A stretch of 62,875 nt of DNA, the filler included, from Stramenopiles sp. TOSAG23-6 (taxonomy: Eukaryota), in assembly GCA_900128565.1 (NCBI GenBank). It is 9 parts of 9 records of this genome, joined end to end, with 100 filler letters (N's around TTAATTAATTAA, not from the genome) between each part and the next. Parts side by side here need not be neighbours in the genome. Positions count along the whole stretch, not along the records: positions 1 to 11,327 come from LT636268.1; positions 11,428 to 22,740 come from LT636269.1; positions 22,841 to 34,143 come from LT636270.1; positions 34,244 to 45,545 come from LT636271.1; positions 45,646 to 56,929 come from LT636272.1; positions 57,030 to 58,417 come from LT639128.1; positions 58,518 to 59,904 come from LT639129.1; positions 60,005 to 61,390 come from LT639130.1; 1 more part is not named here. The stretch is one strand, 5' to 3'. This document shows positions 1,669-62,875 of this stretch, piece by piece. The first letter of the stretch is position 1. Each line of letters starts with the position of its first letter. A program made the translations under genes and the position numbers. The notes under the pieces were generated by a model that had not been told where the DNA came from, did no database searches, and saw nothing but the letters and a program-made list of their open reading frames with translations.

Positions 1669-4600
1669 ATGGTTCCTAATTGGATAAAAAAGGGAATACG
1701 AAAACGTCCTTACTCTGAAGTTGCTGGAGTTGTGAATGGAACTCTTCCTCAGGAAAGTGGACCTCCCATAACGCCCGATCATATGTCCATCAAAGAACTA
1801 TCCACGAAATCGTCAAGTGCGATACAAATAAATGATGAAAATGTAAATTCTCGAAATATTCAGGTGGTTCAATCTAAGAATGTGTCTAAAAAAAAAGGAA
1901 AAAAGCGTAAAAAACAGACAGTCGAAGAAAAGAAAAATTTCGCCGAACGCATGGCAAAAGGCAGAGCAGAAAAACGACGCAAGCAAGCAGCGCAGACAGC
2001 AATTGATGAATTAAACAAAGACGTCTCTGAAATTGTAGATGAGAGTGAAGTAAATGAAGAAGAGGAATGCGTCGGTAATCGTAGAAGTTCGCGTTCTCGA
2101 GTATCCAGGTATATGCAAATTGACGGACAAACTGTTTTGAAAGCAAATAATTATACAATGGAACAAGGGGAACTTTCAGTGTATTCGCGTGAAGCTCGAG
2201 GTACGTTTGATGCATCCTCAAATGATATTAAGAGACCTGTTCGAAATGCATATATGCTATTTATGTCAGAATTTGAAGCCCCAACAGAAGACAATAGACC
2301 TTATATACAGCAAGCTTCGGAAACATGGCAAGGTCTTTCAGATGCTAAGAGAATGGAATTTAAACGCCGTCACCAACAAATGGAAGAAAAATGGTTAGAA
2401 ACGGTTGAAAATAATAAAAGAAAAGCTCAAGAAAAAATAGCTGCAGAAAAATTAGCCGATCAAAATAGGCAAATTTTAGCAAATAAACAACGCGACGAAG
2501 AATGGCAAAAACTAAATGAAAAACGCAAAATGAGTAAAGCTGCAAAAATGAAGGCACAAGGTAAAGATCGTGTGTTTGATCTGAGTACTATAGAAGGTCG
2601 TCGCCTTAAGCATAATAAATCAATGAAAGCTGAACGAGAGTCAGTTATTGCTCTACGGAATACAGTTTTTGCATATTATCGAAATAATCTCAAAGGATTT
2701 ACTGAAAATATCCCTCATGCCCTTTCAACATCTGAGTATGATGTAATGACGGCAGGGCTCGTGGATACTGAAGGCGCCCCATGTGTATCTCAACCAAGTA
2801 TTATTGTTAATGGTACTATGAGAAATTATCAATTGAAAAGTTTGGAATGGCTACTTTGGATGTATGTACGTTTTCATCAGAAATTTCAATTTTATTTATT
2901 TTCATACGAAATTTCGTACCTAACAAATTTTATAAAAAAAATATTTTTTCACAATATATGATCATGGTATGAATCCAATTCTCGCTGATGAAATGGGATT
3001 AGGTAAAACGTTGCAGACAATTGCATATTTAGCTGCATTAAAAGAGAGGGGCGTGTGTGGTCCACATGTACGTTTTCATTATGAATTTCTAATGTATTTT
3101 TGTTTCATATGAAATTTTGTAATTAATGATTTTTTTGATTTTTTTGTTTTTCACAATACATCTTGTTGTTGTGCCATTGAGCGTAATGAGTTCATGGATG
3201 AGTGAGTTTCGTCGTTGGTGTCCATCGCTACGTGTAGTTCGCTTGCATTCACAAGACAAACATGAAAGAATGCGTTTGCGTACATTTTCAAAATTGAAAT
3301 TCGTTTTTTTTTTTATCATATAAAATTTTGTATCTAACCAAAAAAATCAAATATTTGAAATATTTTCCTACAATATATGTACCCATGTAATTGCCGATGT
3401 CAAGAATTATGACGTCATTGTAACTACATATGATTATGTTAAAGTGAAGGAAATGAGACACACTTTGAGTTCTCGCATAGCTTGGAGATGTCTTGTACTT
3501 GACGAGGGTCACAAACTGAAAAATGATGAAGCTGAAATTAGCCTGGCAATGCGACGTGTTAATTGTCAATCAATACTATTATTAACTGGAACTCCTTTGC
3601 AAAATAATTTACATGAGTTATGGTCTCTATTGAATTTTTTATACCCTAAAATATTTCCCGAATCGATTGCATTTGATGACGCATTTAGTTTAAATGGTTC
3701 CCAGATGCAAATTAAACGAGACGTATTGTCAAGAGCACATCATCTTATGGTTCCTCTAATGTTACGCCGTGTGAAACATGAAGTCGAAACTATGCTTCCT
3801 CCAAGAGTTGAAACAATTATCAAATGTCCATTGAGTGAAATGCAGAATTTTTGGTATAAACGTTTGTTGTTGAAGAATTCTGCCATGTTACAAGGATTGG
3901 AAGAAAGACAAATTTTAAAAGAGAAGGGGGAAAATGTCGGACAAAACTCTGGTGGTGAATGGAAAAAATTGAAAAGTTTAATGATGCAACTTAGGAAATG
4001 TTGTAATCATCCATTTCTATTTCCTAATGTTGAAAATACACTTGCAGATGCTGATGAATTGATCAACGAAGATGGTGCTGCAAATGAATCAATCGTAAAA
4101 GCATCTGGAAAAATGGAGAACTTGGATCGTTTGCTTACTGGGTTGTTTGCAAATGGTCATCGTGTAGTCATATTTTCACAATTTACAAGATTTTTAGATA
4201 TTGTAGATGATTATCTTCAACTTCGTGGCTATCAATTCGCAAGACTAGATGGAGGAACAAATCGCGTACAACGTATGGTCGACATACAAGAGTTCAATAA
4301 ACCTAATTCTCCATTAGTTGCATTCATTATGAGCACAAAAGCAGGTGGTTTGGGTGTAAATCTTCAGACTGCTGATACAGTTATTCTTCTAGATAGTGAT
4401 TGGAATCCACAAAATGATTTGCAAGCGATGGCTAGAGTTCATCGTATTGGTCAGACTAAGTTGTGTCATGTATATCGTATGGTAAGTTCCGGTACGATGG
4501 AAGAACGAATTGTACAACGTGCTCAAAAGAAATTATTTCTAGATACAATGGTCAATCGTGGTTCCACCTCTAATGCTAAAGCGGTAGAAAAATTAGGTAG

Positions 4601-7600
4601 CAAAGAACTTCTTGAAGCTTTGTCCTTTGGTGTAGAGCGATTGTTTGACAAGAAAAATGATAATGATTCATTGGAGAAAGATAGATATTTGAGTGAAAGT
4701 GAGGTAGCTTCTATAATTGACCGTTCAAAAACAAAAGAATCTGTGAAAATCTCAGTTAATAATGAAGATGATAATACTAATGATGTATCTGAAAGTTCAT
4801 CTACAGCAACTACGATGAAATCTTCGTCAGTGAGTCTACAAAGTGGTCAGCGCCAAACTCTTGCATCATATGATGAAGTCGCACCAATGACAAAATTAAC
4901 ATTTTTTCAAGGACAAGATTTCCGTGCTGGGGGTGTTGCTACATATAAAGATATGGCAGATGCTTGGGTCGAAGAACTTAAATCTAAGCGGAAAGCGCGT
5001 GAAAGAAAGTCTAGATATATGCAAATTGATGGACAAACTGTTTTGAAAGCAAATAACTATACGATGAATCAAGGGGAACCTTCTGTGTTTCATCAAGAAA
5101 ATAGAAAAAATAAAGACGAACAAGTAGCTATCGTTGCTCAAACTGGTCCACAACGTGCTGGTCGTGATTATGAGCATGAATCACAGTGTTTGTATTGTTG
5201 GGACGGTGGTGATTTAGTGTGTTGTGATGGGTGTCCTGCTTCTTTTCACTTAGAATGTTTAGGATTATCAAAAGCTTCTTTAGATAATATGAAATTTCAA
5301 TGGTACGTTTTCATATTGAATTTCAAATTTTGTTTTTATACCAAATTCTGTACCTAACGATTTTCGGATTTTACATTTTTTTTCACATTACATGTATTGT
5401 CCTCATCACTCATGTATAGAATGTGGTCGCAAGGCTGCTGCGGTAGGTGGTCTTATTTTCCGATGTGAGGTTTGTCCTACTAGTTATTGCGAGGATCATT
5501 TACCTGATATTGCACGAAATAACATTACAAACAAATGTAAAAGATTTCAAAATCTCGGCCAAAATCATCCGAAACAAGCTTGTTTTGTGCTTTGTTCTGA
5601 AAAATGTCAAATCTTCCACAAGGCAACAAATGGTGGTTCTAATTTAAGTATTTTTAATACTTTGGAAAATAAGGAGAAAGCAATGCGGAACGCAGAACGA
5701 GATTTAAAGAAAGAGAAACAGAAAAAAACTCGTGATGCGTTGGCATGGCATAAAACAAAATCAGACGAACGCAAACAATGGTATGGCAACAGCACATCTG
5801 ATAAATTTGACAGTACAAATAGTAAAAATAAATCGTCTGAGTCTTCATTGATAAAAACAGAAGAAAATACAGAATGTTATAAAAAAACTCGTTCAAAATC
5901 ATTATTAAATGAAAATCGGTGGTTCAAAGGTATGCGATTAAAAGTTGATTATATGGGTAGACAATATTCCGCTAAAGTAGTTCGAACATCTAAAACTGCT
6001 TTGTATGTAAAGTATAGTGATGGATCACAAGAGGATATCTTATGGGAAGATGTCGAGGAGCGGGTTATTAAAGTCCCTGTAAAAAAGAAATCTGAAAATG
6101 TCATTTTGCCTCCACAAGACGAAATTAAAAATGAAGACAATCAAATAAATTTCATTTTGCCTCCACAAGACGAAATTAAAAATGAAGACAATCAAATAAG
6201 TATACATGATAAGTTGGAAGAAAAAAACGATGTAAACCAGAATGAAGAAAAAAAAGATAGTTACCAGAAAGAAGACGACGTAATACAAAATAAAGTTGTT
6301 GAGAAAAAAGTAGCTTCAAATTGGGAAAAACTCTCCCTTAACACTTCTTTGATACCTGGGTTTGTTCAAGGTCGCTTTGCTGTTGTAATTTCAGCTGGTT
6401 TGTCTAGCCTTCCATTATATGCATTATCTGGGTTTAGTAAACGTTTAGAAAATTTGCGGCTCGATGATATGAAATATTTATATGAACTTATCTACTTAAA
6501 AACAATTCCTCGAGATGAGGAGCAAGCTAAATTTGAAATTAAAAGTTGGGTTGGTGTAGGCATTAAATTAGATTTAAAAGCAGAGTCACATTCAGAAGTA
6601 GTTAGTTTATTAAATCAATCTGATTTAATGAATAATGTTTCTATTCTATACCTTCGAATTGTGAGATCGCTTCAGCGACCGGTTCGCGAAGGAGGGCTAT
6701 CAAAGTCACAAGTTTCGAATTTTGTAAAACTTTTTGATTTAAAAGGTGAAAAGGGACAAAAATTGGATAACTTTTCGGTTCCTTCTATTGCTGAATTGAT
6801 TGCGTTTTTCCTCGTATTTCCTAGTGCTATACACCAGAGAATTAGAGTGAATGAAGCATTCAAACATACAATAAAAGATTTCGATGTGAAGGGTCGTATT
6901 ATTATGAGAAAAAAAAATGGTAGAGATATAAGATTGTATGAATGTCTAGAAAATGAAACAATTAAAAGGATTGCTAAAACGTTTGGATGTGAAGTTCAAA
7001 CTATTCTAAACATTAATAGCAAAAAAATTAAAGGACTTAACGCGAGTAATTTACTTATCGGGGGTACAGAAATTGCATTACCTGTTGCTGTTTGTAGAGA
7101 ATTATGTAGGAATCAAAATTATTTTGGAAAACATGTTCACTCTATCTTTGATTCCGATCATTTTGGTCCCTTTTCAACACTACGTGATGAAATTAAAGAC
7201 GAATATACTGTTCAACCAATTAGAAGTTTTTTTGATAATAATGTGAAATTGATTGAAGAATTCGAATGGGAATGTAATTTTGATGGTTTCACATTGGGAC
7301 CATCGAACTGTTTTGCATCAAAAAAACGAGGAAAATCTGGCATGGACAAAATTGTTAATGAAATTCAATTGTATCGTAGGCAATTATCTCAACTCGTGGT
7401 TAAATTTGCAAAGGAAGAGCGCGATAGGTTGGGTAAAGAAAAATTAATTAAGCTATTTACCCGAGAAATCTTTGATCAAAATGAGAAAAAAAGATTGATA
7501 GAATTTGATACAATGGTTTCTTCATTATGGAATTTACATACTCATGGTATTTTTATGAAGCAAATTGAATTTCTTCGTGGGAATTTTGCTGGTGTAAAGG

Positions 7601-8820: not shown

Positions 8821-8848
8821 TAGTAATAATAAAAAAGGAATAAATTTT

Positions 8849-11427: not shown

Positions 11428-13293
11428 GAGTATTTGATTCAAGTTTGTCATCCGGATTTAGTAGTGTCATATGAACAAGCAGCAGTAAAAGCAAATCAAC
11501 GCGGGGATCCTTGTTTTATATGGAATAAAATGGCAGAATCGTCACTGAGTATAAAAGGCCGAAAAGCAAAGGATTACAAGCAATTGTTTGATGATATTCG
11601 ACCAAATCAAAATGAAGGAGGTCGTAGTTTCGCGGTAGAAGTAAAAAAGGGTGCGGAAGAGTTAATGCGATCAAATGTAGAACGTCGGATCCAACTGTCA
11701 ATTAATCAGGTAGGAGCAAGCGAAAACGTAACAGAAAAGTCATGTCTAGTGAATAAATTGGAAAGTGTGATAATTACAGCATATAAAAGTGCAGCAATAA
11801 GTGGTATAAATACAGCGGCAGTCCCAGTACAACTAGGACTCAATTTAAAAGCAGACGAAGTAGAAAGAGATTTCAATTTTTTGTCGGCTGCAATTAAAGA
11901 AATAAACGGAAGGGAGGATGATAATGAAAGTGGAAGATATTTTAAAACAAAAGGTGGTACACCTTTCGTATCGAAAACTCCAAATAACAGTAAAAGTAAA
12001 GTAAATCGTTCGTTGAATGAAGTCATTGAAAAGGCAAAAGACGAATCATGGGAAAAAATAAAAGAGGGAGATGATGGAAAAGAAGATGATGGAAAAGACG
12101 ATAAAAATATTGATTTAAATAAGAAGNATAACCGCGAAGAGATAGCATATGGAACACTGAGTATGGGAAAGCAAAAGACACCAGGGCAGCACCGATTGAT
12201 CTATAAACTATATAAGCAACATCAGAACGAAATGTTTCAGATTTTGCTGAAACTGGANAAGGGAAAGATCAATGTTTTCTCAGAAAATCCGAGTGAAGAA
12301 GCTGCGGCTATTAAAGTTTTGCCGCTACTAATAAGATTTATGTGGATCGAAGCGAACGATTATGAGTTACGTTTGCTATTGCAATATATTCCATCGATGA
12401 GGGANGATCAGTNTAATTCGTATCAAGAGAAGCATAATATATTCGGAGCTCAGAATATAAGTGGAGCGGTCGGTTTTCGACTNCATCAAAGTGTGCANCT
12501 TCAAGCACAATATTATTTTAAAGCGTTAATGGTCATACCATACACAGAATGCTGTGACCAATTACACAAAGACCTTTCCTCGAGTGAAGGGCANGTNAAT
12601 CAGCANGTTAGATATTTCGCGAAAACAGTAACTGGTATACAATTATTTCATTTGACGNTGANTCAACTACATATTGCAAATCAATATGAAAAGTTCACTC
12701 CGAGAGTGACNAAACTGGCGAAATCAGGTTCTTTTGCACAGCATGCCGCGCACCTCGCGCAAATGTCTGTATGTCAAGGAGCCGAATACAAGTTTGAAGC
12801 AGCATTGGCAGGAGTGAAAAGTCATTTCAGACCAAATGATAATGGAAACAANAANAATGGTAAATATGAGAAAAATCGAAATTTAAGTACAACTAAAACG
12901 GGAATAAATCAGGATTCAATCTATGATTNGAGANGTAATATAAAATGGCAACGTGATTTATGGGAATCNGCGGTTCGAGAATTCAAAAGCGATGCTACAT
13001 CTCAGACAATCGCTAACATGTGTTACAAATGTGGGGNTGTGAAAAACGAGTGCCAAAGTGAAGGGAAATGTACAAAAGTTAAAGGTAAATGCGGTCATGT
13101 TATAGAAGCGGGGACACGGCAAGGGCAAGAATGTTCAGCNATGCACACGGAAAATATGCACAAAATATGGGCAAAATATAACGAGCTCAAGTGGAAACGN
13201 GTANATGAATTCAAACAGAAACGACGGGAAGGTAAAAATGTCANGTGTAATGCAGAGGTAAATCCTAGTGATGATTCTTCGGAGTCTCAGTAG
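11428..13293 (+). CDS. Gag-like protein, 5'-partial
   Basis: 619-aa ORF directly upstream of and in frame with pol; Cys/His-rich C-terminus (CYKCG...C...C...H...H). Confidence 0.75.
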   Translation, partial: EYLIQVCHPDLVVSYEQAAVKANQRGDPCFIWNKMAESSLSIKGRKAKDYKQLFDDIRPNQNEGGRSFAVEVKKGAEELMRSNVERRIQLSINQVGASENVTEKSCLVNKLESVIITAYKSAAISGINTAAVPVQLGLNLKADEVERDFNFLSAAIKEINGREDDNESGRYFKTKGGTPFVSKTPNNSKSKVNRSLNEVIEKAKDESWEKIKEGDDGKEDDGKDDKNIDLNKKXNREEIAYGTLSMGKQKTPGQHRLIYKLYKQHQNEMFQILLKLXKGKINVFSENPSEEAAAIKVLPLLIRFMWIEANDYELRLLLQYIPSMRXDQXNSYQEKHNIFGAQNISGAVGFRXHQSVXLQAQYYFKALMVIPYTECCDQLHKDLSSSEGXXNQXVRYFAKTVTGIQLFHLTXXQLHIANQYEKFTPRVXKLAKSGSFAQHAAHLAQMSVCQGAEYKFEAALAGVKSHFRPNDNGNXXNGKYEKNRNLSTTKTGINQDSIYDXRXNIKWQRDLWEXAVREFKSDATSQTIANMCYKCGXVKNECQSEGKCTKVKGKCGHVIEAGTRQGQECSXMHTENMHKIWAKYNELKWKXVXEFKQKRREGKNVXCNAEVNPSDDSSESQ

Positions 13294-34243: not shown

Positions 34244-34298
34244 AGGTACAAAATTTCGTATGAAAAAAAAATCGAATTTGAAAAAAAATAAAACATAC
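34244..34298 (-). other. Family intron, truncated by contig end
   Basis: AT|GTATGTTTT...GTACCT. Confidence 0.8.
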
Positions 34299-36926: not shown

Positions 36927-36977
<51 letters not shown>

Positions 36978-45545: not shown

Positions 45546-45701
45546 NNNNNNNNNNNNNNNNNNNNNNNNNNNNNNNNNNNNNNNNNNNNTTAATTAATTA
45601 ANNNNNNNNNNNNNNNNNNNNNNNNNNNNNNNNNNNNNNNNNNNNATTTTGTACCTAACAAATTTTAGTTTTTTTTTTTGAAATATTTTTCCAAAATACA
45701 C

Positions 45702-49298: not shown

Positions 49299-52200
49299 AT
49301 GTCTGATCCAGAGGGATATCAAATACCTCCAGCTGTCTCTGTCAGCAATGACGTTAGTCAATCAACTCCTCGTACATCTCTATCTGTCGTCACAAAAACA
49401 CATACAAAAAAAGAATCAGGTATACCAAATGATTTATATGAAGGTGGGACGCAAATCGAGTCTGTAATATCTCCTATATCAAATGCTTCATCGGAATGCG
49501 CTTCTTTACGTCAACAAGTAGTTCAATTATCTAAATGTGCGGAAGAAAACTCTATAGAGAATTTCTTACCTGATGAAACTCCGTTTGCTGAGTCTCTCCC
49601 ACCTCGGCCAATAGCGCGCGAAAATCAGCATCGTATAGAATTATTGAAGCGAGCTCGCCGAATGGAACACGATAATGAACGACGCGAGCGTGAAAAGATA
49701 AAAGCAAATAACAAGCTACGTCAAAAAACTTTGGAGAAAATAAACGAAAGTCAAGAAAAAAAATTAGGGTTAGAGTTTCCACAAAGTCTTCGAGATAAAG
49801 AGCAATTTGATGAATTAATGAATTTAAAAACGGATGAAATTTTATCTCGATCAAATAAGCAAACAAAATTTAGATTAGATGAAAATGAAATTTTAGTTGG
49901 AAAAAATAGTTATATATCTACTACTACGGGTAAAACATCCGAAAAATGTATAAACCCTAACCCTAGTAACCCGAGTGAAGGTCAAATCACAAACAATGAC
50001 ACTCAGAACATTCAAAATTCGTTACGTTCGAAAACCATAGGAGGATTAGCAACAGATGTTCATTCAAATGTTCATTCAAATGTTCATTCAAATGTTCATT
50101 CAAAATCAAATAATAGACCTAACCTTGGGAAGGATTACTCCTTAGATAACAATACACAGTATTCAATGCGTGAACGAAAAAACACGAAATCTATACAAAA
50201 CAAAATCGAACATAGCACAACAAAAAGTAACGATAATTGTACTGTCCAGAAAACTTCAAAAACTCCAAAAGTGAATAATGTAGAAATCATTCGGGCACAA
50301 AAAGCAGCATTGGAGCTAGCTAAGTATAGTATGGCGCAAAATCAATTAAAAATTAGAAAATTGGCGATGGAAAGAAAACAAAAAAGTCGTATGTTTTTTT
50401 TTCAATTTCGAATTTATTTTTCATACAAAATTTTGTACCTAACCATATTTTTTTTTTTCGAAAATTCTTTACCTAACAATTTTTCTTTTTTGATTTTTTT
50501 CAAAAATATATGTGATCTGGCAATAAGACTTAGGGAACAAACATTACAGCCAAGACTACCAAAAAGAAAACGAAAATCTAAAGAAATTAATAAAAATATA
50601 AAATCAACATTATCAAAAAGTAGTTCAAAAAATAGAAATTTCGCAGCTTCTTTTCCAAAATCTAAAAATACAAAAACATCAAAATCAAAGCCAACAGTGT
50701 TAAAAATAAAAAATAGTACAAAACATCATGAAATAAATCATCCAAAAAATACAAAACATCAAAACAATCAAAATCATAACCCTAATCCAAAAAATACAAA
50801 ACATCAAGACAATCTTATTTTGAAACAATCAAATTCTGCGACTGAAAAAAAAGTGAAAAAGAAATCGACCAAATCGACCAAACCAAAAAAGAAGATTGCG
50901 TATAAAGAATTAAAAAGGAGACGACAAAATGTCAATTCTTTAGGTAAGAAATTTCCTACGAATTTAATTTCGAATGATAAAAATTTGGATGATTCTCATA
51001 CGAGTAAAAAAATAGAGCAAGCCATAAATAGAACATGTACGTTTGCACCATGAATTTCAATTTTTTTTTTTTTTGATACGGAATTTTGTACCTAAATGTT
51101 TTTTTTTTTTGAGTTTTTGAGTTTTTTATTCAATACGTTTTCACTATAAAATGTCAAATTTTTTTTTTAGAAAATTTTGAACCCCAAACACATTTTATTT
51201 TTACTAAAAAAGAAAAAGAAAAAAAATATATTTTTTCACAATACATGGTTGGATGGTTTAGAAACTTCTATAATGAACAAAATATTACCTTTACAAATTC
51301 AAAAAGAGAATAACAAAAATAACAAAAATAATACATCTAAAAAAGAAAAAAATACTAATTTTCACACTCGTAAAAATACAATTGAAAAAAGTTTAGAAAT
51401 ATCATCTGGAAAGCCAAAGAATACAAAATCAGAGTCAGAAAAAATAGAAAAACGTAAAAAATTAGTTGCATATATGGCGCGAAAAAAGAAAGAAATGAAA
51501 TTAAAAATTAAAGCAGAAAAACAAAAGTTTGAAAATGAGAAAAAGTCAAAAGAAGAGAGACTTCTTGGAGTACGGGAAAATGCTTTAAAAGCATATCAAA
51601 CTATGAAAGTGAAAAAGATGTATGTTTTATTTTTTTTTTCAATTTTGAATTATTTTTTTTCAAAAAAAATTTGTACCTAACAAAATTTTTTAGTTTTTTT
51701 TTTGAAATATTTTTCCAAAATACATGCCACTGCTAAAGAAAAGAGAAACGAATCGCAAATCCCGCAAAGCATTGAGTATTACTAAAAATGGATCGAAAAT
51801 GAGATACAATTCGCATTCAAGTAATTTTGGTACAACAAAAAATGTTCAAAAACAAAAAATGTTCAAAAATGAAAAAATAAAAAGTACGATAAATTTTCAA
51901 ATGGACAAGAATTTAAATTCGACCGATGCATCGAATATAGTAAAGCATACTAAAACTTCTAGTACATCAATACATCAAAATCAGTCGTCAAGTAGTATTC
52001 AAATGCTCAAAATCAAAGAAAAAAAGAGTAATAAAAAAAAGAATAATATAGTCAAAAAAAGTTCCACTTGTATTAAAACATCTAAAATACCTAAAAAAAC
52101 TCATAAAAATAAATCTACTTTTGAAAATGGAACCCAACAAATTCGAAATTTATCAGGTGTTGTGAAAAAAACTCAAATATCTCAAGATTCAAGTTCAAAT

Positions 52201-55200
52201 TTGCAAATGAAAACTAAACTAACTTTGTTAAATACTAAGAATACTAGGAATAATAAAAAAGTAAATTCTACAGTAGAGGAAAGTAGCAGTGAAACTCAAG
52301 ACTCTCAAGAATGTATGTTTTTTTTTTTTTTTTAATCGATTTTTTTTTCGTACGAAATTTTGTACCTAACAAATTTAATTTTTTTTTTGAAATATTTTTC
52401 CAAAATACATGCAGTAGTGAAACTCAGGAAAAAGAAAAAGCAAATGAAGTATTACATCAAGTTTTTGAATTAGGTGATTCGATCATCGAATGCGCAGATC
52501 GATTGAGTTCGTTTTTTGATCATAAAAGTAAAAAATCGATCGCTTCACTATCAAAAAAACAATTTAGACGTTCAAAATCAAAATTGAAACAGAAAAAGAA
52601 GAAGAAAACACGAAAAAAACTAAATGCTGTACATAATGATGGGAAGAAACAACGAAATCAACTGAATTCTGATAGTAATGATCAGAATTGTTTACATACG
52701 AAAAAAAATCCTCAAAGTAGAGGAAAAAAGGATGACCCTTACAAAAAACATAAGAAAAATATGCGGGAAAGATGGCAAATAAGAGAGCGCAACTTTTTAG
52801 AATTATCTGTTGGTAGAGGCGAATGTACGTTTGATTTTTTTTTTCAACAAAAAAATCGGATTTATTTTTTTCAAAAGATTTTGTATCTAACAAATTTTTT
52901 TAGATTTTTTTTTGAAATATTTTTCCAAAATACATGGGATAATATTCAAGAAAATAGTGAATCTTTATTTGATAATATTGAGAATCTTGGTTTAGTAGAA
53001 GAAAAGAAAAAAGAAGTTTCATCTTCTCTTGCATATACAAAATTTCTACAAAATATAAAAGGCCAAAAAAATAATTATATTCCTGATTTTGAATCAAATG
53101 CAATTAATAGCCAATTACAAAATGTTGTACAGCGAGGTTCAAATCTTCCAAAATTAATCGCGAATCAACTTGCTGCTGGTGGTTTGAGTGATGAATGTAT
53201 AAATGATTTCGAAGATTCTGCTGAAGAAAAAAACGGATTTGGTATATTTGATGTCCATGCACGAAATCTACTACAATGTGAACTGAGTGGATGGCGTCGA
53301 CAACAAATCGATGAAAACCTACGCAAAACTCATCATTCTGACATTGAAAACGTAAAACAAACAAAAGACAATGTTTTCGATAAAGATGATGATATTGACT
53401 ACGATATTCCTGTGGGTGGAATTGTATCAGCGTATCTACAAAAACAAGGTAGTACAACAAATATTAATGATTCAAAAGTTAATGATGAGCCTAGCCCTAA
53501 CCCTAATCTACAAAAACAAGGTATTACAACAAATATTGATGATTCAAAAGTTAATGATGAGAAAATATTCGAAGATTCACAGCAAAATATTCATGATATA
53601 TCTTCATGTTATGCTAATGAAGCATTTGAAAGAGAAAATGTAAATAAATCAAGAATTTCGTGTGATATGGATAATACAAATGAATTAGGGTTAGAGCTAA
53701 ATAAATCAAGAATTTTATCTATGGAAAATAGTAATCCTAACCCTAATACTGATCCAAACAACTCATTTGATAAGATTTTATCGACTAGTGCCGAAAATAA
53801 TTCGAATACTGATAAAAAAAATGATAAAAATAACCCTAAAAATAATAGTAGTATTTACTGGGATTCTTTATTATCTGTTCCTGATGGAGATCATCGACCT
53901 CTATTAGATGTCTTGCCTGATACACGTAACCCTAACCCTAATCGACCTCTATTAGATGTGTTGCCTGATACACGTGTAGAAGTGACTGATGGATGTATTG
54001 AGGGTGATACAACAACACCTCTATTAGGTAGAGCAAAGGAAATAAAAACGTCAAAATCCTCAGATTTTTTGAAAACATTTGAAAAATCAAAAACAAATAA
54101 TTTATCCGCTGTTGAAATGGGTCGTTTGCTTCAATCAGAAGTTGAATATATGCATTCATTAACTGAAAAAGAAAAACGAATTGATCAAATGAAAGATATT
54201 CAAGCCATTCAAATCGCACAAGCTGAAACTGCTGATATTCGAGCTCGATGGGAAGATGTACGTTTTCGTTTCAATTTTTAATTGATTTATTTTTTCATAC
54301 GAAAATTTGTACCTAACGAATTTTTTTTTTAGACGTTTTCATTTCAATTTTTTGTCTAAATTTTTTGTTTTGAAAAAATTTGTACCTAACGATTTTACAT
54401 TTTGAAATATTTTTCATAATCCAGGCACATGGCGTTGCTAAGTTTGCAGCACAGCAAACATTAATCCAAAAAGAATATGAAAAAAATGTGATGCAAGCTG
54501 CTGAGCAATTGCGTCTCGATTTGGAAAATGTACACAAAAATCGTGTCCATCAACTAGAATCAGAAAATACCGCACTGAGACAAAAAGAAGTGTTTGTTCA
54601 AACCGAAACCCTACCCCTACATAAAATTGAAAAAAATGAAAAAAAAGACACAAATCAGCATGTAATAAAAGACACAACTGATACGAATGAGCGTTCAAAT
54701 TTCGTAAAAAAAGCTTCAAATATTTTACTCAAATCGAAAGCTGAGATAGTTACGAGATTTGTATCTGAAATAAATGTTCTCAAAATACAGGAAGAAAAAT
54801 TGATCGAATTATTCAAGAGACAATTGAAAGAAATCAAAGACAATTCTGGCACAATAGAAAAAATAGAAGAATTAAAACAAAAACACATGAAATCTATAAA
54901 GGTACTTCAACAGGATAAAGATGAAATTACATTTGAACATCATCAGAAAATACAGAAATTAAATCAACGAATTCGAGATCTAAATGAAATTTCTTTTTCA
55001 GAAGAATTATCTCAAGAATCTCTAGATGTTGATACAAGTGTAGATTCGTCTTCTACGACAAGTTTCGTTTCTACAGCTGATTTGAAAGATGATAAAATCA
55101 GTACAGTTGATGAGTCAATGACAAATACTTATGAATTAGATGATTTTGAAAGCACAAGTTTGAAACAATCCATTGAAGACATAAAGGAAATGAATATACC

Positions 55201-56929
55201 TGATTTTTCAGATCTACAAAAAATAGAAGATGATATACCAGATAATAATAATCATTCAAATCTACACAAAATAGAAGAAAATATAGAATCCGTATCTGAA
55301 GTGTCCGATACCTATGAATCAGATTTTGAAAAACTACAAAACGAAACTGAAAGGAAAGAAATTTCAACATCATCTCCCAGTGTCGATGTATGTTTTATTT
55401 TTTTTTTTTTTACAAAAAAATCGATTTTTTTTTTTCAAAAAATTTAGTACCTAACAATTTTTTTTAGATTTTTTTTGAAATATTTTTCCAAAATGCATGT
55501 CACAACTTCCGATGAGTTTGTGATGGAAATGCGTGGGCAAACAGAACATCTGAAGACAAAATTGAATGAAGATAAACTCCGAAAAAAAGAAAAAGTTGTT
55601 CAAAAGAAACGTGAAGCAGCGGTACAGTTATTGAGACAAAAAGAAAAAGTAATTGAAATGAAAACAAGAGAAATTGCGCTTCTGCGCGATGAAGCTGAAG
55701 TAGAAGAATTAGTAAAAAAGGCACTCTTAATTGATGTAAATGTAGAAATTAAAAAAGCTCAAAAATTATTACAAAATCGCACAAAAAATGTTGAAAAAAA
55801 TGACGAAAAAAATGTAGATAAAACGTCGGATATAGCAGAACCTCTCTCAACAATTACATCGAAATTTAAATTAGCAAATTTACCAACAAGAAACGGTCGA
55901 CAAAAGAATGGTGAAATGATCCAATCTGGTGCATCCTATAGTAGTTATGATGGTGCTAGTGAAATTGCTGATGATATTTTAGATCGAGGAATGACTACAT
56001 TGTTAAAACTAGCGACGGATCACTCTACTAGTAATGTATCAATATGTGAAGATATAAATACTAATATACCAGAAAGTAGTTTTGTTGACCCTACTATACA
56101 TCAAGATAGTGTTATTCTTGAAGAAAGTGGTGCCTTCATTGAATCTTCATCAATAGTTGCTTCAGAAGTTGGTGAATCTTTAAGCAAATCGAGTAGTATT
56201 AACTCATATGGAGATGAAAGTTTTATCTTCTCCGGAGATGAAGCAACAAAAATGACAAATGAATTGAATAATACATATGAAAAAGATGAATTTGAAGATG
56301 ATGATGTCAACGAATTGAAGGAAAAAGATGAATTTGAAAATGATGATGTCAACGAATTGAAGGAAAAAGATGAATTTGAAAATGATGTCAACGAATTGAA
56401 TGACAATGTGCAATTGAGTTTCGCTTCTTCTACGATAGAAAATAAAGTAGACAATGAAAATCTGAAAAATAACACTAAATATGATGATGAAATTTTAGAT
56501 TTTGAAAAAGAATCAAATGCTACAAAATTTCGTGTCGAATCTCTAGAAAATGTATGTTTTATTTTTTTCAATTTCGAGTTTTTTTTCTTACGAAATTTTG
56601 TACCTAACGTTTTTTTTTTTTTGAAATATTTTTCCAAAATACATGAACTGGAAATGAAAAGAGCCGACGCTGCAAAACTCGCACGATTAAAGAGTGTTAA
56701 AACAGCGTCACTTAGAGAAAAACTTAGAGAAGAAACACTTTTAGCAGAAATTGCATTATTGGATAAACAATGTGACACGATAAAAAATACAACACCTGAG
56801 ACTGTATCAGATGTACGTCAAAAATATGATGTAGGTTTCATTTTTTTGAAAATTTGAATTTTTTTTTTTATAGTAAATTTTGTACCTAACAAAAAATTTT
56901 AGATTTTTTTTTTGAAATATTTTTCCAAA
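49299..56929 (+). CDS. Very large Lys/Asn-rich coiled-coil protein (possibly CEP350-like), 3'-partial; introns 50389-50511, 51037-51246, 51620-51725, 52313-52410, 52825-52935, 54258-54424, 55388-55498, 56552-56644, 56831-end
   Basis: Six ORFs join into one frame when family introns are removed; LLQSEVEYMHSL...IQIAQAET weakly recalls CEP350. Confidence 0.7.
50389..50511 (+). other. Family intron (GT-AT), in-frame, two branch motifs
   Basis: GTATGTTTT...TACCTAAC x2...AAAATATAT. Confidence 0.75.
51037..51246 (+). other. Non-canonical intron (GT-AT), long
   Basis: GTACGTTT...CACAATACAT; frame restored. Confidence 0.8.
51620..51725 (+). other. Non-canonical intron (GT-AT)
   Basis: GTATGTTTT...CCAAAATACAT; frame restored. 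Confidence 0.85.
52313..52410 (+). other. Non-canonical intron (GT-AT)
   Basis: Consensus ends; frame restored. Confidence 0.85.
52825..52935 (+). other. Family intron (GT-AT), in-frame
   Basis: Consensus ends. Confidence 0.8.
54258..54424 (+). other. Family intron (GT-AG), two units in tandem
   Basis: Two GTACCTAAC; ends CATAATCCAG at the consensus position. Confidence 0.8.
55388..55498 (+). other. Non-canonical intron (GT-AT)
   Basis: ...CCAAAATGCAT; removes in-frame stop. Confidence 0.85.
56552..56644 (+). other. Family intron (GT-AT), in-frame
   Basis: Consensus ends. Confidence 0.8.
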
Positions 56930-57030
56930 NNNNNNNNNNNNNNNNNNNNNNNNNNNNNNNNNNNNNNNNNNNNTTAATTAATTAANNNNNNNNNNNNNNN
57001 NNNNNNNNNNNNNNNNNNNNNNNNNNNNNT

Positions 57031-57105
57031 GTACTCCCAGGAGAGCTCGCTAAACACGCTGTCTCTGAAGGTACCAAAGCTGTTACCAAATTTTCTTCCA
57101 ACTAA
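57031..57105 (+). CDS. H2B: Histone H2B, C-terminal fragment
   Basis: VLPGELAKHAVSEGTKAVTKFSSN*. Confidence 0.95.
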   Translation, partial: VLPGELAKHAVSEGTKAVTKFSSN

Positions 57106-57571
57106 ATTTGAGAAGTTACAATTCATATGTATGTGATGGAGTCGGCTTATGCCGTCACCGCCTGTATGAAAACCAAACAAGGTATTTTAAATACCATCCT
57201 CAAAAAGAAATCAATTTAACAAGAAACAATGTTTTTAGTTTAATTAACATTATATATTATTATAATAAACTTCGTTGTGTATGAACAATAACTTTTTAAA
57301 AGTATACGTGTGTAGTTGAGAATGCGCATCTAGTCCCGTTGAGCGCACATCCTTGGTCCAGTTTAATACTTGATATTATACTATTATACGTACAATGTAT
57401 TAGTGAGCGCGTTCTTTATTGTATTCTTTAATGAAGAGCAAAGAAGAAAGTTGTATACAGAAAGTAGTCTCTTTTTGTTTTATTATGATTTATTATAATA
57501 ATTGTAGAATGTTTTAGAATGTCATCAAGACTTCACCTCCATCATTGTCTCTTCCTAACCTTTCAATGAAA

Positions 57572-58296
57572 TCAAAGTTCTCGAAGTCCCATTGCACCTT
57601 GCACAAGGCATATGTATTGCTTTTCATCTAGATCAGCAATTTCTCGTACCCGATCTGAAATATTTGTATTTGGCGTTTTACGGAATTTTTGAACCATAGA
57701 AGCTCTACGTAAGAAATATTTCGCCACAATTTCTAAAACTGATAAACCGGATACTCTACCGGATTCATACATCAATAACAACTCTTCTGCAACAGCCGCT
57801 GCCATATTATTTCCAGTTTGTAACTTCGGCATCTTCAGCTGTAACCAAAAACGCATTTTCACGAAAGCAACAACCATTCTCATGATCTCTTTCCGTAACT
57901 TAAAGTATAAATCTTCAATATATTTGTTATCCGGGACAGTGATTAAACCATCACTCCCTGGAGGCTTACATGAAACACTTTTCTTTANNNNNNNNNNNNN
58001 NNNNNNNNNNNNNNNNNNNNNNNNNNNNNNNNNNNNNNNNNNNNNNNNNNNNNNNNNNNNNNNNNNNNNNNNNNNNNNNCTTTAATAGCATCCATTTTTT
58101 CCATATTTTCTTTCATACGTTGCTCCTTTTCAACACCTTTTAATTTCATACATGAGATTCTATCTTCTACTCTATAAGTCGTTGCACTGTGTTTTCTCTT
58201 TACGCCAGTACTTCGGGGTGGAGACACATGAGTTTTCGTCTCCCCATTACTCGCACCAATATTTGACGAAGAAGATTTTTTCTTTGCTGGACTCAT
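57572..58296 (-). CDS. Hypothetical protein spanning gap 57988-58079
   Basis: Two same-strand ORF pieces either side of an N gap. Confidence 0.45.
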
Positions 58297-58517
58297 TGAA
58301 ATTAATAAAGAAGTTTTTGCGTGTCTTATCAGTTAATATACAATACTGAGAAATGCTTCGAAAGTTTTCGGAAAACACAGAGTTTGTTTTATATTCGTGT
58401 CTTCTTCTTTCTTTTTCNNNNNNNNNNNNNNNNNNNNNNNNNNNNNNNNNNNNNNNNNNNNTTAATTAATTAANNNNNNNNNNNNNNNNNNNNNNNNNNN
58501 NNNNNNNNNNNNNNNNN

Positions 58518-59904
58518 TAGGTACAAAATTTCGTACGAAAAATAAATTCGATTTTTTTGTTTAAAAAAAAAATAAAACATACATGTAAATTAAATTCTTC
58601 ACGAAGAGATTTTGATAGAAACTTAATATAATGTTCTGGTATATCACTTCTATTTCCAAAAATACAAAATGTAGGTGGTCTAGCAGTAACTTGAGACATA
58701 TATCGGAATTTCACAGGTTTCTTTGATTCTGATAATGTATTTCGGAAAAATATTTGAAAAAAAAATCGTTAGGTACAAAATTTCGTACGAAACAAATAAA
58801 AAAAAAATCGAATTTGAAAAAAAATAAAACATACATGGTGGTGGTGTAAGAAATGTAATTCGTTCTAACCATCTATTTAAATGTGAAGTGGATGCACGAA
58901 GTCTCCATTGATCAAAAAGAGCAATAGCAGTCGGCATAACTTGTCGAACTCCACCTCCAGTACCTGTATTTTGAAAAAATATTTTTTTTTGTAATAATGT
59001 TTTGTTAGGTACAAAATTTCGTATGAAACAAAAATGAAGTAAACAATTCATGATGAAAACGTACGTGCTGAAAGCGCAATGACTGGGACATCACCACCTT
59101 GACGTAATTGTGACCTCAATGTTTCTGTTACACCTTTAAGAGCCGCATATCTACATGGAACATCATCAACTTTATTAACAATACCCATGTATTGTGAAAA
59201 AATATCATTGTAGAAAAAAAATCGTTAGGTACAGAATTTCGTACGAAAAAAAAATAAATTTGAAATTCATATCATGAAATCGTACATGACTGCGCGTCCT
59301 TGAGATATAGCTTCTGATGCTAATCTTAAATCTTGGGCGGGTACAATGCCATCCGTAGCATCAACTACTATAGCAACAATATGTGCATGCTCTATCGATT
59401 TTTGAGAATCAGAAGCCGAAAGATTTTCTAAAGGAGTTGATCTATCTCGTTTCCCATGTATTGTAAATTTTTTTTTTTTGAATTTTTTTGTTAGGTACGA
59501 AATTTCGTATGGAAAAAAAAAATAATTTTGGAAATGAATGATAAAAACGTACATGTCTTCGAACGCCTGCCGTATCAACTAAACGAACATCTCGTCCTTC
59601 ATATTCACATTCTACAGTAACAGAATCACGAGTAATACCAGCCATAGAACCAGTAATTAATCTTTCCTGTCCGACAAGTTTATTGACTAATGTTGATTTA
59701 CCAACATTAGGCCGACCTATAATTGCTAATTGAAGTGGTTCAACATCAGTTTGACCTCCATCTATAGGTAAATTAGTAGGTAACACTTTCCCTCCACGAC
59801 CTGCACTTTTATGATGATACTTATAGGTATTGTGTTTATTTTGAGATTCAAATTCCTCAAAATTGGCATTGTTTTTATTTTGAGATTCAAATTCCTCAAA
59901 ATTG
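58518..59904 (-). CDS. der: GTPase Der/EngA (organellar), partial: second GTPase domain and KH-like domain; introns 59456-59552, 59187-59285, 58964-59064, 58735-58834, 58518-58582
   Basis: [28 protein letters not shown], spliced [30 protein letters not shown]. Confidence 0.9.
58735..58834 (-). other. Non-canonical intron (GT-AT)
   Basis: Restores [15 protein letters not shown]. Confidence 0.88.
58964..59064 (-). other. Family intron (GT-AG)
   Basis: ...CAAAATACAG; restores LSARTG (G5 motif). Confidence 0.88.
59187..59285 (-). other. Non-canonical intron (GT-AT)
   Basis: Restores [12 protein letters not shown] (G4 motif). Confidence 0.9.
59456..59552 (-). other. Non-canonical intron (GT-AT)
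   Basis: Restores [12 protein letters not shown]. Confidence 0.9.
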
Positions 59905-60211
59905 NNNNNNNNNNNNNNNNNNNNNNNNNNNNNNNNNNNNNNNNNNNNTTAATTAATTAANNNNNNNNNNNNNNNNNNNNNNNNNNNNNNNNNNNNNNNN
60001 NNNNATTTTTCTTTGCATGTGTGGATCTTGAGACTTTCTCTCTGATTCAGCAACTTCACTTAATATATGGCCGACATCTTTGCTAATGTCATCATTATTT
60101 TGCGTCATTTCATTCTTCATTTTAGACAAAGTAGTCCCGCCATAACCATGCATCTCTTTCAAATCAACCACAAAATCACGCTCTAGTTCTCGCAACTCTT
60201 CTCGAAGTCTT

Positions 60212-60820
60212 TTATAAATCATCTTCTCGAAGAAAATGTTTATGATCTTCCAACCAAGCCCGAATTTTACCAGCATACTCAAAAAAATGTTTTAATGATT
60301 GGCAATAAAATTTTTCACAAAATTTATCAAAGTCCTCACCCATACCCATTTTAGGATCTTGTTTTTGAACTCCCAGGGAACGCTCTAGGTCATCGATGAC
60401 GGGCTCTAACCCAGACACGTTTTCTTCATTGTTGAAGATATCTTTCACGTCTGTTACAAGTTGATCAAACATATCAATGTATTGACTGGAATTATTGTTT
60501 GTTTCAATTATACGTGCGATTTCTTTTGGTTTGATTTTAAGCTGTTTTGCTAATACAGCACATTTTTCATCTAACCTTTTCTGTACTTTTTGTTGTATTG
60601 GATTTAACTTGCCACCAGAAGAAGAAGAAGAAGAAGAAGAAAGCTCAGTTGTAGAGGACACATGAGGACTTTTATCAAGGTCTAGTCCAAATTCTAAACA
60701 AATGACATCTTTGATCCTATCAATACAATCTACTTCATCTGGAAAACCTAACTCGTCTAAGCTTTTAAGGACATCCTCAAGTTGCTCGATGGTGTGCTTA
60801 ACTTTTTCAGCTTTGTCCAT
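60212..60820 (-). CDS. Hypothetical protein
   Basis: 202-aa ATG-initiated ORF; an overlapping frame continues to the linker (possible frameshift). Confidence 0.5.
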   Translation of the reverse strand: MDKAEKVKHTIEQLEDVLKSLDELGFPDEVDCIDRIKDVICLEFGLDLDKSPHVSSTTELSSSSSSSSGGKLNPIQQKVQKRLDEKCAVLAKQLKIKPKEIARIIETNNNSSQYIDMFDQLVTDVKDIFNNEENVSGLEPVIDDLERSLGVQKQDPKMGMGEDFDKFCEKFYCQSLKHFFEYAGKIRAWLEDHKHFLREDDL

Positions 60821-61490
60821 GGCAACTAATAGTGACGGTTTGATAACTACCTGGTAGTATAATGTATACCAATTGGTTTTCTATAAGATAATGGTATAAC
60901 AATATATAGGTTCAAAGAATACCAAATGTGTATTAATGCAAGATTTATTACACACACAAAAATCGTATCTTAGAAAAAGTTGATATCACTGGATCGAGAG
61001 AATACTGGTACTACGTAATGTCGTGAAATTATAACCGACGAACGAAATCATTTTTTGAGAGATTTTTGAGATTTTTGAGATTCATTGTTCTAGTAAAATT
61101 TAAAAAATCTGACAATTTCAAAAACAATAAATAATGTTGTACCATTTTTTCATACTTGCAAAACATCTCGAGACAAAATGGTACTGAGTCGTAGTATAAT
61201 AATAGAATATGACACCCAACAATACTAATAAGCTTTATATTACTGTTCTGTTATTAGGCAATTTTTTTTAAAAAATTTTCCAGTATTTTAAATTGATGTT
61301 TAATCTTTTTAATTAGAGAGTAAATTTATGTAGATAATTGTTATTATTAGTTTTATATTATATACTATGAAACTGGATTTGTATAACATTNNNNNNNNNN
61401 NNNNNNNNNNNNNNNNNNNNNNNNNNNNNNNNNNTTAATTAATTAANNNNNNNNNNNNNNNNNNNNNNNNNNNNNNNNNNNNNNNNNNNN

Positions 61491-62055
61491 ATTTTGGAAA
61501 AATTTTTAAAAAAAAAACTAAAATTTTTTAGGTACAAAATTTCGTACGAAAAAAAAAAAAAAAAAAAAAAAATGTCTAATGAAAACAAACATGCATACGA
61601 GGGACCCACTGATCCTCCGTTATTGGTGGATTCAGAAAATTTGGAGCCCAATCTTGATGTAAAATGGCATCTGCGTTCTCACGTAGAACAATGTTCATTG
61701 CACCTTTAGCACCATACCTTGCAAATAATTGACTGGGTGATCCAGGGGTGTAACTGTCACCTGCTAACCAATTTTTCCTGACTTTTTCCTTCTGTTTCTC
61801 CATTTTCCGAATTCTTTCAGCACGAATCGCTGCCTTTGATGCTGCTCTTATCGAACCAGGACGTTTATTAAGCATAGGTGCTTCCCAGCTATATAAACTA
61901 GGTAATTCGCACCATAACTCAGCACGATTCTTGACAAGTTTGGACGTTGGATTCACGTTATAGAGATTTCCTATACGTGAAGATGACTTTTGAAACTTTG
62001 TCAATTCGGGAGTTCCTCGAAAGGTTTGCTTTTTCTTTCTTATAGATTTTCTCAT
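61491..62055 (-). CDS. Hypothetical protein, 3'-partial; family intron starts at 61590
   Basis: ORF ends in CAT|GTTTGTTTTC...GTACCTAA. Confidence 0.5.
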
Positions 62056-62474
62056 CAACAAAATCAATGTGTACAGATAATTTTAGAGTTTTACACTACA
62101 CAAAAACTGCGGTAGTAAAGAATGAAAGTATCGTCGAAACGTTTTGTGTCAAATGTTTTGGTAGTACTACCTTTTCATTATTATTATTATTATTATTCTA
62201 GGGTATAATATATATGTAACTGTTTTTGAAACCGTAGAGCTCCTAAAAATAGTTATACGTAGTAGCTATATATAGTACTAGTCATTTTTTTGTATATCAC
62301 AATTATACCTGGCTGCTCTACAAAAATACAAAAATACAAAACTACAAAATAGTGATTATATAAATAGGCTAGTAGCAATGTCATTGTGAATAATAGATAC
62401 TGATATTTTGATATTCTTGGTCTATTCTTTATAAATTATATTTCTACTTCAAGGTAAACCTTTTCACAAATTCA

Positions 62475-62843
62475 ATGAACGGGCTCAACCTAGATGATGA
62501 TACGTGGTACTACAAAGATAACGAAAATATCACACAGGGTCCTTTTACACCCATAAAAATGCAGGAATACTTTGAAAGGAAACAACTTCCGCCAGATCTG
62601 ATAATATCTAATTCTCCTATTGGTCCTTGGGTAAAATTAAAGACTAAAGGTTCAGACCCATTTAGGGTTAATGAGGAGAAAATTTCAAAAGAAGCTCTGG
62701 AAGCTGAAGTTGAAAGAATTGAGAAGATGCGCCAAGATAGAGAGGCTGGGAATGCTGGTACACTTGAAGAAAGATTTCCCATTGGAATCCCCTTGTCAAA
62801 AGTTGTTAAATTAGAATGTAGCAAATTATACTCGAGAGGAGGC
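62475..62843 (+). CDS. GYF-domain protein, first exon; family intron starts at 62844
   Basis: WYYKDNENITQGPFTPIKMQEYFERKQLPPDLII. Confidence 0.75.
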
Positions 62844-62875
62844 GTATGTTTTTTTTTTTTTTCATAANTTTTTTT

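Follow-up and report, generated by a model that had tools for sequence, protein, structure and literature searches.

A family of introner-like inserts in a stramenopile assembly whose predicted splicing runs from GT to AT

Introduction

Almost all spliceosomal introns end in AG. Large sets of non-canonical introns derived from transposons have been described in Fritillaria, Amoebophrya, Polarella, euglenids and, in the form of U12-type introns, Physarum (PMC11282704). Here we describe a family of short inserts, all beginning with GT and mostly ending in AT, in a window of 62,875 bases from Stramenopiles sp. TOSAG23-6 (assembly GCA_900128565.1). The window is the whole stretch of DNA analysed and consists of nine contigs, five of ∼11.3 kb and four of ∼1.39 kb, joined by N spacers. 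They resemble a family of introner-type introns derived from transposons.

Of the two splice sites of an introner, one is part of the element and the other comes from the duplicated target site, and the length of the mRNA is unchanged once the introner is removed (PMC11282704, PMC9860276). In Fritillaria, AT is the commonest 3′ end (44% of the introns in F. pellucida and 34% in F. borealis), and introns derived from miniature inverted-repeat transposable elements (MITEs) have YAY as their last three bases, often also before the 5′ site, and keep a T-rich tract (PMC13326754). More than 60% of Amoebophrya introns are non-canonical and multi-copy, with target-site duplications and inverted ends (PMC11282704). 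In Physarum, GT-AT makes up 17% of 1,014 non-canonical U12-type introns (bioRxiv 10.1101/2020.10.12.336362).

Results

We searched the window with an nhmmer profile built from 15 seed copies of the insert and obtained 44 matches at a threshold of E<1e-3; a fuzzy search for the conserved core gave 20 matches per strand. As controls we used 80 unrelated metagenome loci (947,262 bases), where the same profile had no match. Curation by eye gave 36 complete copies and five copies cut by contig ends, on seven of the nine contigs. The two contigs at 57030-58417 and 60005-61390 carry none, in agreement with the original prediction that all but two contigs have inserts. As two of the complete copies are tandem doubles, the number of element units is 43, which is the figure first reported. 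Counted over the whole window, the copies have a density of ∼1 per 1.5 kb. The complete copies are 89 to 210 nt long (n=36), and every one of them is in sense with the gene that holds it (p ∼1.5e-11), as had been claimed. One gene holds 13 copies (12 complete and one cut by a contig end), and the exons between these stay open.

GT forms the 5′ end of all 36 complete copies. The first six bases are GTACGT in 16, GTATGT in 11 and another GTNNNN in nine, that is GTAYGT in 27/36. At the 3′ end, the last two bases are AT in 32/36, AG in three (the copies ending at 38224, 54424 and 58964) and TT in one (20003); the last three are CAT in 25, TAT in five, CAG in three, AAT in two and CTT in one. The original prediction had counted 31 AT, four AG and two TT among 37 copies; the AT majority stands and the exact numbers do not, a difference that the copy 37844-37742, with an in-frame AG 21 nt further on, may explain. 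In the three AG copies the last T is turned to G exactly at the acceptor position. AG is absent throughout 15/36 copies, and from the last 40 nt in 26/36; none was found in the copy 3068-3161, for which this had been noted before.

A branch-like motif of the CCTAAC type (GTACCTAAC) was found in 35/36 copies; its distance from the 3′ end has a median of 38 nt and ranges from 27 to 58 nt. In the alignment, T runs follow this motif, and the conserved 3′ end of the family is ..AATAC-AT. Judged as U2-type spliceosomal introns, the inserts have a GT with an extended donor, a putative branch motif (in such introns CTRAY, some 20-50 nt upstream of the end) and a pyrimidine tract, and they lack the 3′ AG. 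A simple scanning model of acceptor choice was rejected: the first AT after the branch-like motif is used in 0/36 copies, so that the wider ..AATACAT context must help to define the acceptor. Folding of 32 copies revealed no structure that clamps the ends together (mean z-score −0.2; at least four end-to-end pairs in the minimum-energy fold in 8/32).

We searched for canonical alternatives from −15 to +15 of the donor and from −45 to +30 of the acceptor. An in-frame GT/GC..AG alternative is missing in 7 of the 31 copies evaluated, and where such alternatives are present they would add or delete residues. A list of possible acceptors based on open reading frames (ORFs) did not help, as the T-rich tails of the introns frequently remain open in frame.

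Cutting from GT to the last base joins the longest flanking frames in 34/35 testable copies (p ∼1e-15 vs 1/3). In the raw longest-ORF test the figure is 34/36, the two failures being 45436-45543, at a contig end, and 44355-44445, which would fit with a short first exon. Exons were joined by their coordinates, and alignment of the products with homologues covered 10 junctions (four in SNF2, two in DGAT2 and four in Der), all of them gap-free at the junction. This was observed at 4/4 junctions against 13 homologues in SNF2, and likewise at 4/4 against 13 homologues in the Der GTPase, its AG-ending copy included. DGAT2 junction 2 reads PI/HLMKV (the slash marks the junction), compared with PI/HLPK(L or V) in five homologues, and junction 1 reads DSH/IG, compared with DAH/PG or PS. 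Thus, the claim that GT...AT excision restores the SNF2, PHD, DGAT2 and Der motifs is borne out, DGAT2 junction 1 being weakly decided. The alignments support the view that the inserts would have to be cut exactly at GT...AT for the conserved proteins to be intact.

Where SNF2, Der and the first 311 residues of DGAT2 align with homologues, we found no other interruption, and therefore every intron there belongs to the family. This is consistent with the earlier statement that no ordinary intron occurs outside the family, as far as these three homology-checked genes are concerned.

The public gene models P0121, P0241 and P0001 (1951-8817 (+) and 29389-30503 (+)) are 100% identical to the window in the common exons. 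They use canonical sites only and are wrong at every family intron: they drop the SNF2 ATPase motif, the LVVVPLS strand or part of the PHD finger, or enter the intron and stop. In DGAT2 intron 1, the AG at 30138 had been described as out of frame. This is true with the donor at 30043 and false with the GT at 30047, which is in frame and is the donor that the public model pairs with it. Our protein searches gave no transcript-derived, junction-spanning protein of this organism; the matches with at least 90% identity are public genome-based models only.

The copies are listed below, with coordinates, strand, terminal bases, length and, where given, the two bases before the donor.

2866-2959 (+): SNF2 gene intron; GT..AT, 94 nt, AT before; junction gap-free against 13 homologues
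3068-3161 (+): SNF2 gene intron; GT..AT, 94 nt, no AG inside; junction GPH/LVVVP
3280-3378 (+): SNF2 gene intron; GT..AT, 99 nt, GC before; junction MRL/R-THVIADV
5303-5393 (+): SNF2 gene intron, in the PHD finger; GT..AT, 91 nt, TG before; AT-AC reading impossible; junction FQ/W-YCPHH
19905-20003 (+): Myb-domain gene intron; GT..TT, 99 nt, TT before; in frame
20218-20306 (+): Myb-domain gene intron; GT..AT, 89 nt; in frame
30043-30134 (+): DGAT2 intron 1; GT..AT, 92 nt; public model uses GT30047..AG30138
30414-30503 (+): DGAT2 intron 2; GT..AT, 90 nt, boundary unambiguous; public model reads into it; PI/HLMKV against HLPKL or HLPKV
30659-30749 (+): DGAT2 region intron 3; GTATCCTTT..AT, 91 nt; in frame
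34244-34299 (-): IP3R gene, 5′ part only, the copy being truncated at the contig end; profile and inspection
36987-37095 (-): IP3R gene intron; GTTTGT..AT, 109 nt; CCCTAA-like repeats close to the 5′ end
37267-37367 (-): IP3R gene intron; GTAGGT..AT, 101 nt; CCCTAA-like repeats
37742-37844 (-): IP3R gene intron; GT..(CT)AT, 103 nt; in-frame AG also at 37721
37972-38086 (-): IP3R gene intron; GTTTGT..AT, 115 nt
38224-38328 (-): IP3R gene intron; GT..AG (ACAG where ACAT is expected), 105 nt
38489-38596 (-): IP3R gene intron; GT..AT, 108 nt
38718-38820 (-): IP3R gene intron; GT..AT, 103 nt
39826-39926 (-): IP3R gene intron; GT..AT, 101 nt
40377-40540 (-): IP3R gene intron, longer copy; GT..AT, 164 nt
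40713-40804 (-): IP3R gene intron; GT..AT, 92 nt
41208-41303 (-): IP3R gene intron; GT..(GT)AT, 96 nt
44355-44445 (+): family intron; GTTTGT..AT, 91 nt; out of frame in the longest-ORF test, fits only with a short first exon from ATG 44336
45003-45130 (+): family intron; GT..(AA)AT, 128 nt
45436-45543 (+): family intron; GT..AT, 108 nt; two bases from the contig end, frame untestable
45646-45701 (+): 3′ part of a copy at the contig start; ends ..AATACAC and may be an AC-ending variant; upstream exon outside the window
47792-47963 (-): composite family intron; GT..AT, 172 nt, GA before
50389-50511 (+): family intron; GT..AT, 123 nt, CCTAAC block doubled, TC before
51037-51246 (+): two units in tandem as one intron; GT..AT, 210 nt; ..CAATAC of the first unit abuts GTTTTCAC of the second
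51620-51725 (+): family intron; GT..AT, 106 nt
52313-52410 (+): family intron; GT..AT, 98 nt; shares 96% identity with the copy at 45436, which is on a different contig
52825-52935 (+): family intron; GT..AT, 111 nt
54258-54424 (+): two units in tandem; GT..AG (CCAG), 167 nt
55388-55498 (+): family intron; GT..(GC)AT, 111 nt
56552-56644 (+): family intron; GT..AT, 93 nt
56831-56929 (+): copy without its last bases, at the contig end; profile and inspection
58518-58582 (-): Der GTPase gene, 5′ part only, the copy being truncated at the contig end; profile and inspection
58735-58834 (-): Der GTPase gene intron; GT..AT, 100 nt; junction TPPP/LSESKK
58964-59064 (-): Der GTPase gene intron; GT..AG, 101 nt; junction ALSA/R-TGGG
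59187-59285 (-): Der GTPase gene intron; GT..AT, 99 nt; junction checked against homologues
59456-59552 (-): Der GTPase gene intron; GT..AT, 97 nt; junction checked against homologues
61491-61590 (-): copy without its last bases, at the contig end; profile and inspection

Some copies have an unusual structure. Those at 51037-51246, 54258-54424, 47792-47963 and 50389-50511 are composites, built of head-to-tail units or with a doubled CCTAAC block, and each is apparently one intron. In the IP3R introns 36987-37095 and 37267-37367, telomere-like CCCTAA/TTAACCC repeats after the donor replace the usual 5′ part of the element, and these repeats themselves contain the branch-like word CCTAAC. A weak profile match at 48340-48401 (+) (E = 4e-4) is antisense to a 328-codon ORF without a Pfam match. 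It is the only match without a clear sense context and may be due to chance or to the decayed remnant of a copy.

Next, we looked at the traits that the family shares with transposons. AT stands directly before GT in 29/36 copies, against a dinucleotide frequency of 0.104 (p ∼1e-22), and the TT-ending copy (19905-20003) is preceded by TT; in 30/36 copies the insert ends in the same two bases that stand before the donor (29 AT/AT and one TT/TT). Pairwise identity across genes and contigs reaches 96% (45436 vs 52313), with a median of 68% among 32 copies. Two subfamilies can be told apart, GTACGTTTTCATCATGAATTTC... and GTATGTTTTATTTTTTTTCAAATTCGA..., and tandem or nested doubles occur at 51037-51246 and 54258-54424. 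Contig ends fall in or at copies in 6/18 cases (34244, 45545, 45646, 56929, 58518 and 61491), and the repeat therefore seems to break the assembly. The homologues are uninterrupted at all four SNF2 sites, the nearest of them being only ∼50% identical. The 41 copies on seven contigs are thus similar to each other, sit in unrelated genes and lie in sense orientation, as is characteristic of introners. In this respect our analysis goes beyond the original prediction: the inserts seem to form a mobile family akin to introners, with AT repeated at either end.

An exact pattern of the element core had no matches in metagenome, genome and viral contig collections. We also compared words of the sequence with those of sequencing runs. 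One DNA run shares 0.96 of them; it is possibly the source of the window and is not independent support. Seven runs labelled as seawater or marine metagenomes (four of RNA and three apparently of DNA) share 0.05-0.11, values that are no evidence of expression or habitat; as family copies make up ∼12% of the stretch searched, such shares could stem from the repeat alone.

Genes and other features of the window

The DNA of the window is AT-rich (G+C 25-40%), and the standard code gives long reading frames. Pfam searches identified an SNF2 ATPase with a PHD finger, a copia-type reverse transcriptase, an RCC1-ankyrin protein, a PLP-dependent enzyme, an inositol-trisphosphate/ryanodine-type channel, a Myb protein, a clathrin-adaptor small-chain-like protein, a Der-type GTPase and a GYF-domain protein. 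The DGAT2 gene was named from the precomputed family of its protein-search matches. A protein atlas comparison confirmed a eukaryotic SNF2 protein and nothing more. The first exon of DGAT2 is 100% identical to the public protein 'GSMAST32.ASY1.ANO1.1182.1 assembled CDS', and the SNF2 gene matches two further public models that share the GSMAST32 prefix.

Beyond DGAT2 intron 2, at 30504-30896, the frame is open after PI/HLMKV, yet the product is unlike the C-terminal part of the homologues; possible readings are a tail that has diverged, an exon missed past the N gap 30897-30916, or a fusion with the following IQ-motif ORF. The Der/EngA GTPase at 58583-59903 (-) is nearest to alphaproteobacterial proteins. 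It contains five family introns and is therefore a nuclear gene; its product is probably mitochondrial. The copia-type retrotransposon ORF (RVT_2) lies at 13294-18156, and dozens of single N positions across 12127-18079 have the look of ambiguous base calls in the consensus of a repeated element. An ORF with a GYF domain (Pfam) lies at 62412-62864 (+). GYF-domain proteins include a U5 snRNP-associated factor (snRNP, small nuclear ribonucleoprotein), from which we conclude nothing.

Discussion

The aforementioned data lead us to propose, with a probability of roughly 0.8 and on the strength of sequence analysis, that the inserts are an introner-type family of spliceosomal introns removed at GT...AT. 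The element would be a short, non-autonomous mobile element of the introner kind that has multiplied in the protein-coding genes of its eukaryotic host. Each copy would bring with it a strong GTAYGT donor, a branch-point-like GTACCTAAC ∼38 nt from its 3′ end, a T-rich tract and an ..AATAC-AT end. The terminal AT would repeat the AT before GT, most simply as a 2-bp target-site duplication beside short inverted ends (GTAT...ATAC). A spliceosome, most likely the major U2-type, would cut before GT and after the final AT. Such a cut would remove the element together with one AT, and hence the mRNA would have the exact pre-insertion sequence; the acceptor would then be (C/T)AT instead of YAG. We infer the transposon mechanism and the transposon origin of the AT repeat from the traits described above.

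The inserts themselves, as first observed, are confirmed at a level far beyond chance. The original prediction had read them as introns spliced without an AG. That reading is supported in part: the exact GT...AT ends, the 7/31 copies that have no in-frame AG alternative and the intron-like build agree with it, and removal from RNA, the kind of spliceosome and a change in it are what we infer. A changed spliceosome and a majority intron class genome-wide are predictions that we consider well-founded. We would lay even odds on a wider proposal for the MAST-3-labelled lineage, an abundant group of uncultured protists, namely that nearly the whole intron complement has been replaced by one introner family and that the major spliceosome routinely uses (C/T)AU with the GUAYGU donor and the branch site kept. 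The case for splicing rests on the sense orientation, the 13 copies in one open gene, the presence of old copies in conserved essential genes, the intron-like build and the three T-to-G acceptors.

Several points weigh against this interpretation. Its scope is 62.9 kb of one assembly, and the lineage comes from the label GSMAST32, which we take to denote an assembly of the marine stramenopile group MAST-3, and not from a tree. Frame and homology locate the ends of the inserts and do not establish splicing, because removal of a transposon with one target-site duplication restores the frame anyway. As AT is repeated at both ends, the boundary is formally ambiguous (GT-AT, TG-CA or AT-AC) in 20/36 copies. 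DGAT2 junction 1 scores 435.0 bits, against 434.6 for the canonical rival reading; the G of 'IG' occurs in 6/15 homologues and the R of the rival's 'VR' in 0/15. Among the seven copies not preceded by AT, only one ends in its preceding two bases, and the AT before the donor may reflect a preference in donor context and not a target-site duplication. The short inverted ends, (AT)GTAT...ATAC(AT), measure 4-6 nt only and were read from the alignment. Neither an empty site nor a close relative was found: the search with the SNF2 exon gave 80 loci, all at most 44% identical and without family copies.

We considered whether the inserts could be introns of the minor (U12-type) spliceosome, where 3′ ends other than AG are tolerated and GT-AT is a rare class. 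A GT-AT class does exist among Physarum's non-canonical U12-type introns (bioRxiv 10.1101/2020.10.12.336362). Apart from the lack of one T, the conserved CCTAAC is similar to the U12 branch motif TCCTTAAC, and the copy 30659-30749 starts with GTATCCTTT, which matches the donor consensus of the minor spliceosome perfectly. The other 35 copies do not match it, however: the donor core [AG]TATCC of the U12 consensus [AG]TATCCTT is found in 1/36 copies only, and GTAYGT, a classical U2-type donor, prevails. A U12-type branch site typically lies 10-15 nt from the 3′ end, whereas the inserts have ACCTAAC in place of TCCTTRAC, at a median of 38 nt. The U12 definition used for Physarum allows up to ∼45 nt, the motif of that species lying at 9-12 nt (bioRxiv 10.1101/2020.10.12.336362). 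An Rfam search of the window gave no matches, U11, U12, U4atac and U6atac included, which for 63 kb says little. We regard a minor-spliceosome origin as unlikely. It is more improbable still that the true boundaries are AT...AC, 2 nt upstream of GT...AT. In the 20/36 copies with AT before the donor and an ACAT end, AT-AC would yield the identical mRNA; at the −2 shift it is unreadable in the other 16, among them 5303-5393 and 30414-30503, both backed by homology and the latter with no boundary ambiguity of any kind, and the three AG copies, and 3280-3378 can be read as AT-AC only at a +4 shift. AT-AC as a general rule was rejected on account of these 16 copies. GT is invariant in 36/36 copies, whereas the preceding AT varies; as GT is the sole 5′ dinucleotide common to all, GT...AT is the only reading that fits the whole family.

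The remaining two explanations dispense with splicing. If the inserts were recent transposons that are never removed and kill the genes they enter, the restoration of frame would be a trivial in silico result, since any transposon with a target-site duplication restores the frame on deletion; the assembly is also highly fragmented at the insert repeats. With 36/36 complete copies in sense orientation and 13 copies in one gene whose exons are still open, we consider this very unlikely. Moreover, many copies are old (median identity 68%) and are flanked by exons that are still conserved, and conserved essential genes such as the SNF2 ATPase and Der would all be dead. The least probable explanation, in our estimate, is that the inserts are excised from DNA like the internal eliminated sequences of ciliates, so that the expressed genome has none. 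Short, AT-rich, precisely excisable inserts with a repeated end dinucleotide do recall TA-bounded eliminated sequences. Such excision needs neither strict sense orientation nor donor, branch and T-tract signals, though, and in three copies an AG has arisen precisely where the acceptor lies. Ciliate-type eliminated sequences are free in orientation, in contrast to the 36/36 sense copies observed here, and we know of no nuclear dimorphism in stramenopiles.

Removal of the inserts as GT...AT introns, if true, would have several consequences. Fritillaria, Amoebophrya and euglenids break the AG rule with many mixed boundaries, whereas here only the final base of the intron differs. As the donor is standard, a branch-like motif and T tract are present and only the acceptor base departs, the family isolates the choice of acceptor as the question; on the wider proposal above, it would be a clean, single-variable natural experiment on the recognition of the 3′ AG in the second step of splicing. 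It would also add an independent case of a transposon-derived intron burst with relaxed splice-site rules, in a heterotrophic stramenopile. On the practical side, current gene catalogues for the MAST-3-labelled lineage would be largely wrong if the wider proposal holds. Canonical-only prediction fails on the genes that bear the family, and gene counts, completeness estimates and claims of gene loss may therefore be affected; the gene sets of this organism probably need re-prediction. The density of predicted genes per megabase is far lower in two MAST-3 assemblies than in those of MAST-4 (PMC5778133, Table 1). Unrecognised introns would lower the predicted gene density, and a link to these counts is a possibility.

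Comparison with known systems

We found no report of a GT-AT-dominated genome, or of such introns in MAST-3 stramenopiles, in the literature, where supplementary splice-site tables may exist. The original statement that GT-AT is unreported as a majority class is upheld to this extent, with the qualification that AT-ending acceptors are already known as the commonest in two Fritillaria species (PMC13326754). Among the papers listed in our literature search, none on the MAST-3 lineage was paired with introners, and 'splice' occurred at most once. A word search of three MAST genomics papers (PMC5778133, PMC12614181 and PMC8163842) found no statement on splice sites; their supplements may hold tables. 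The words MAST and stramenopile are absent from the main text of the introner survey (PMC9860276).

The introners of Micromonas, Aureococcus, Chrysochromulina, dinoflagellates and other groups are likewise near-identical, short, sense-oriented introns in unrelated genes (PMC11282704, PMC9860276). The Chrysochromulina family likewise carries the 5′ site and co-opts the 3′ site. Described introners are GY-AG, with rare GC or GA donors (PMC9860276), whereas the co-opted 3′ site here would be AT.

Physarum U12-type GT-AT introns have the same terminal dinucleotides and are a small minority there; the inserts lack the U12 donor and the short distance from branch to acceptor. The nonconventional introns of euglenids also have non-canonical ends and repeats like target-site duplications, and a MITE origin is suspected for them (PMC11282704). 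They need a stable fold that joins the ends and have no pyrimidine tract, whereas the inserts have a T tract and no such fold. In Amoebophrya the boundaries are highly variable and U1 small nuclear RNA is apparently absent; here the donor is the textbook GTAYGT and only the acceptor deviates.

The nearest match is Fritillaria, which together with Amoebophrya offers the closest precedents. As in its MITE-derived introns, the inserts end in CAT or TAT in 30/36 copies, and NAT precedes the donor in 29/36. The main Fritillaria classes start with AG (AG/AC and AG/AT), with very diverse termini, and their host is an animal, a tunicate; the inserts start with GT in 36/36 copies, belong to one family and reside in a protist. 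Judged by its sequence, the GT-AT family resembles the known non-canonical introner systems and differs from them by a uniform GT donor combined with an AT acceptor.

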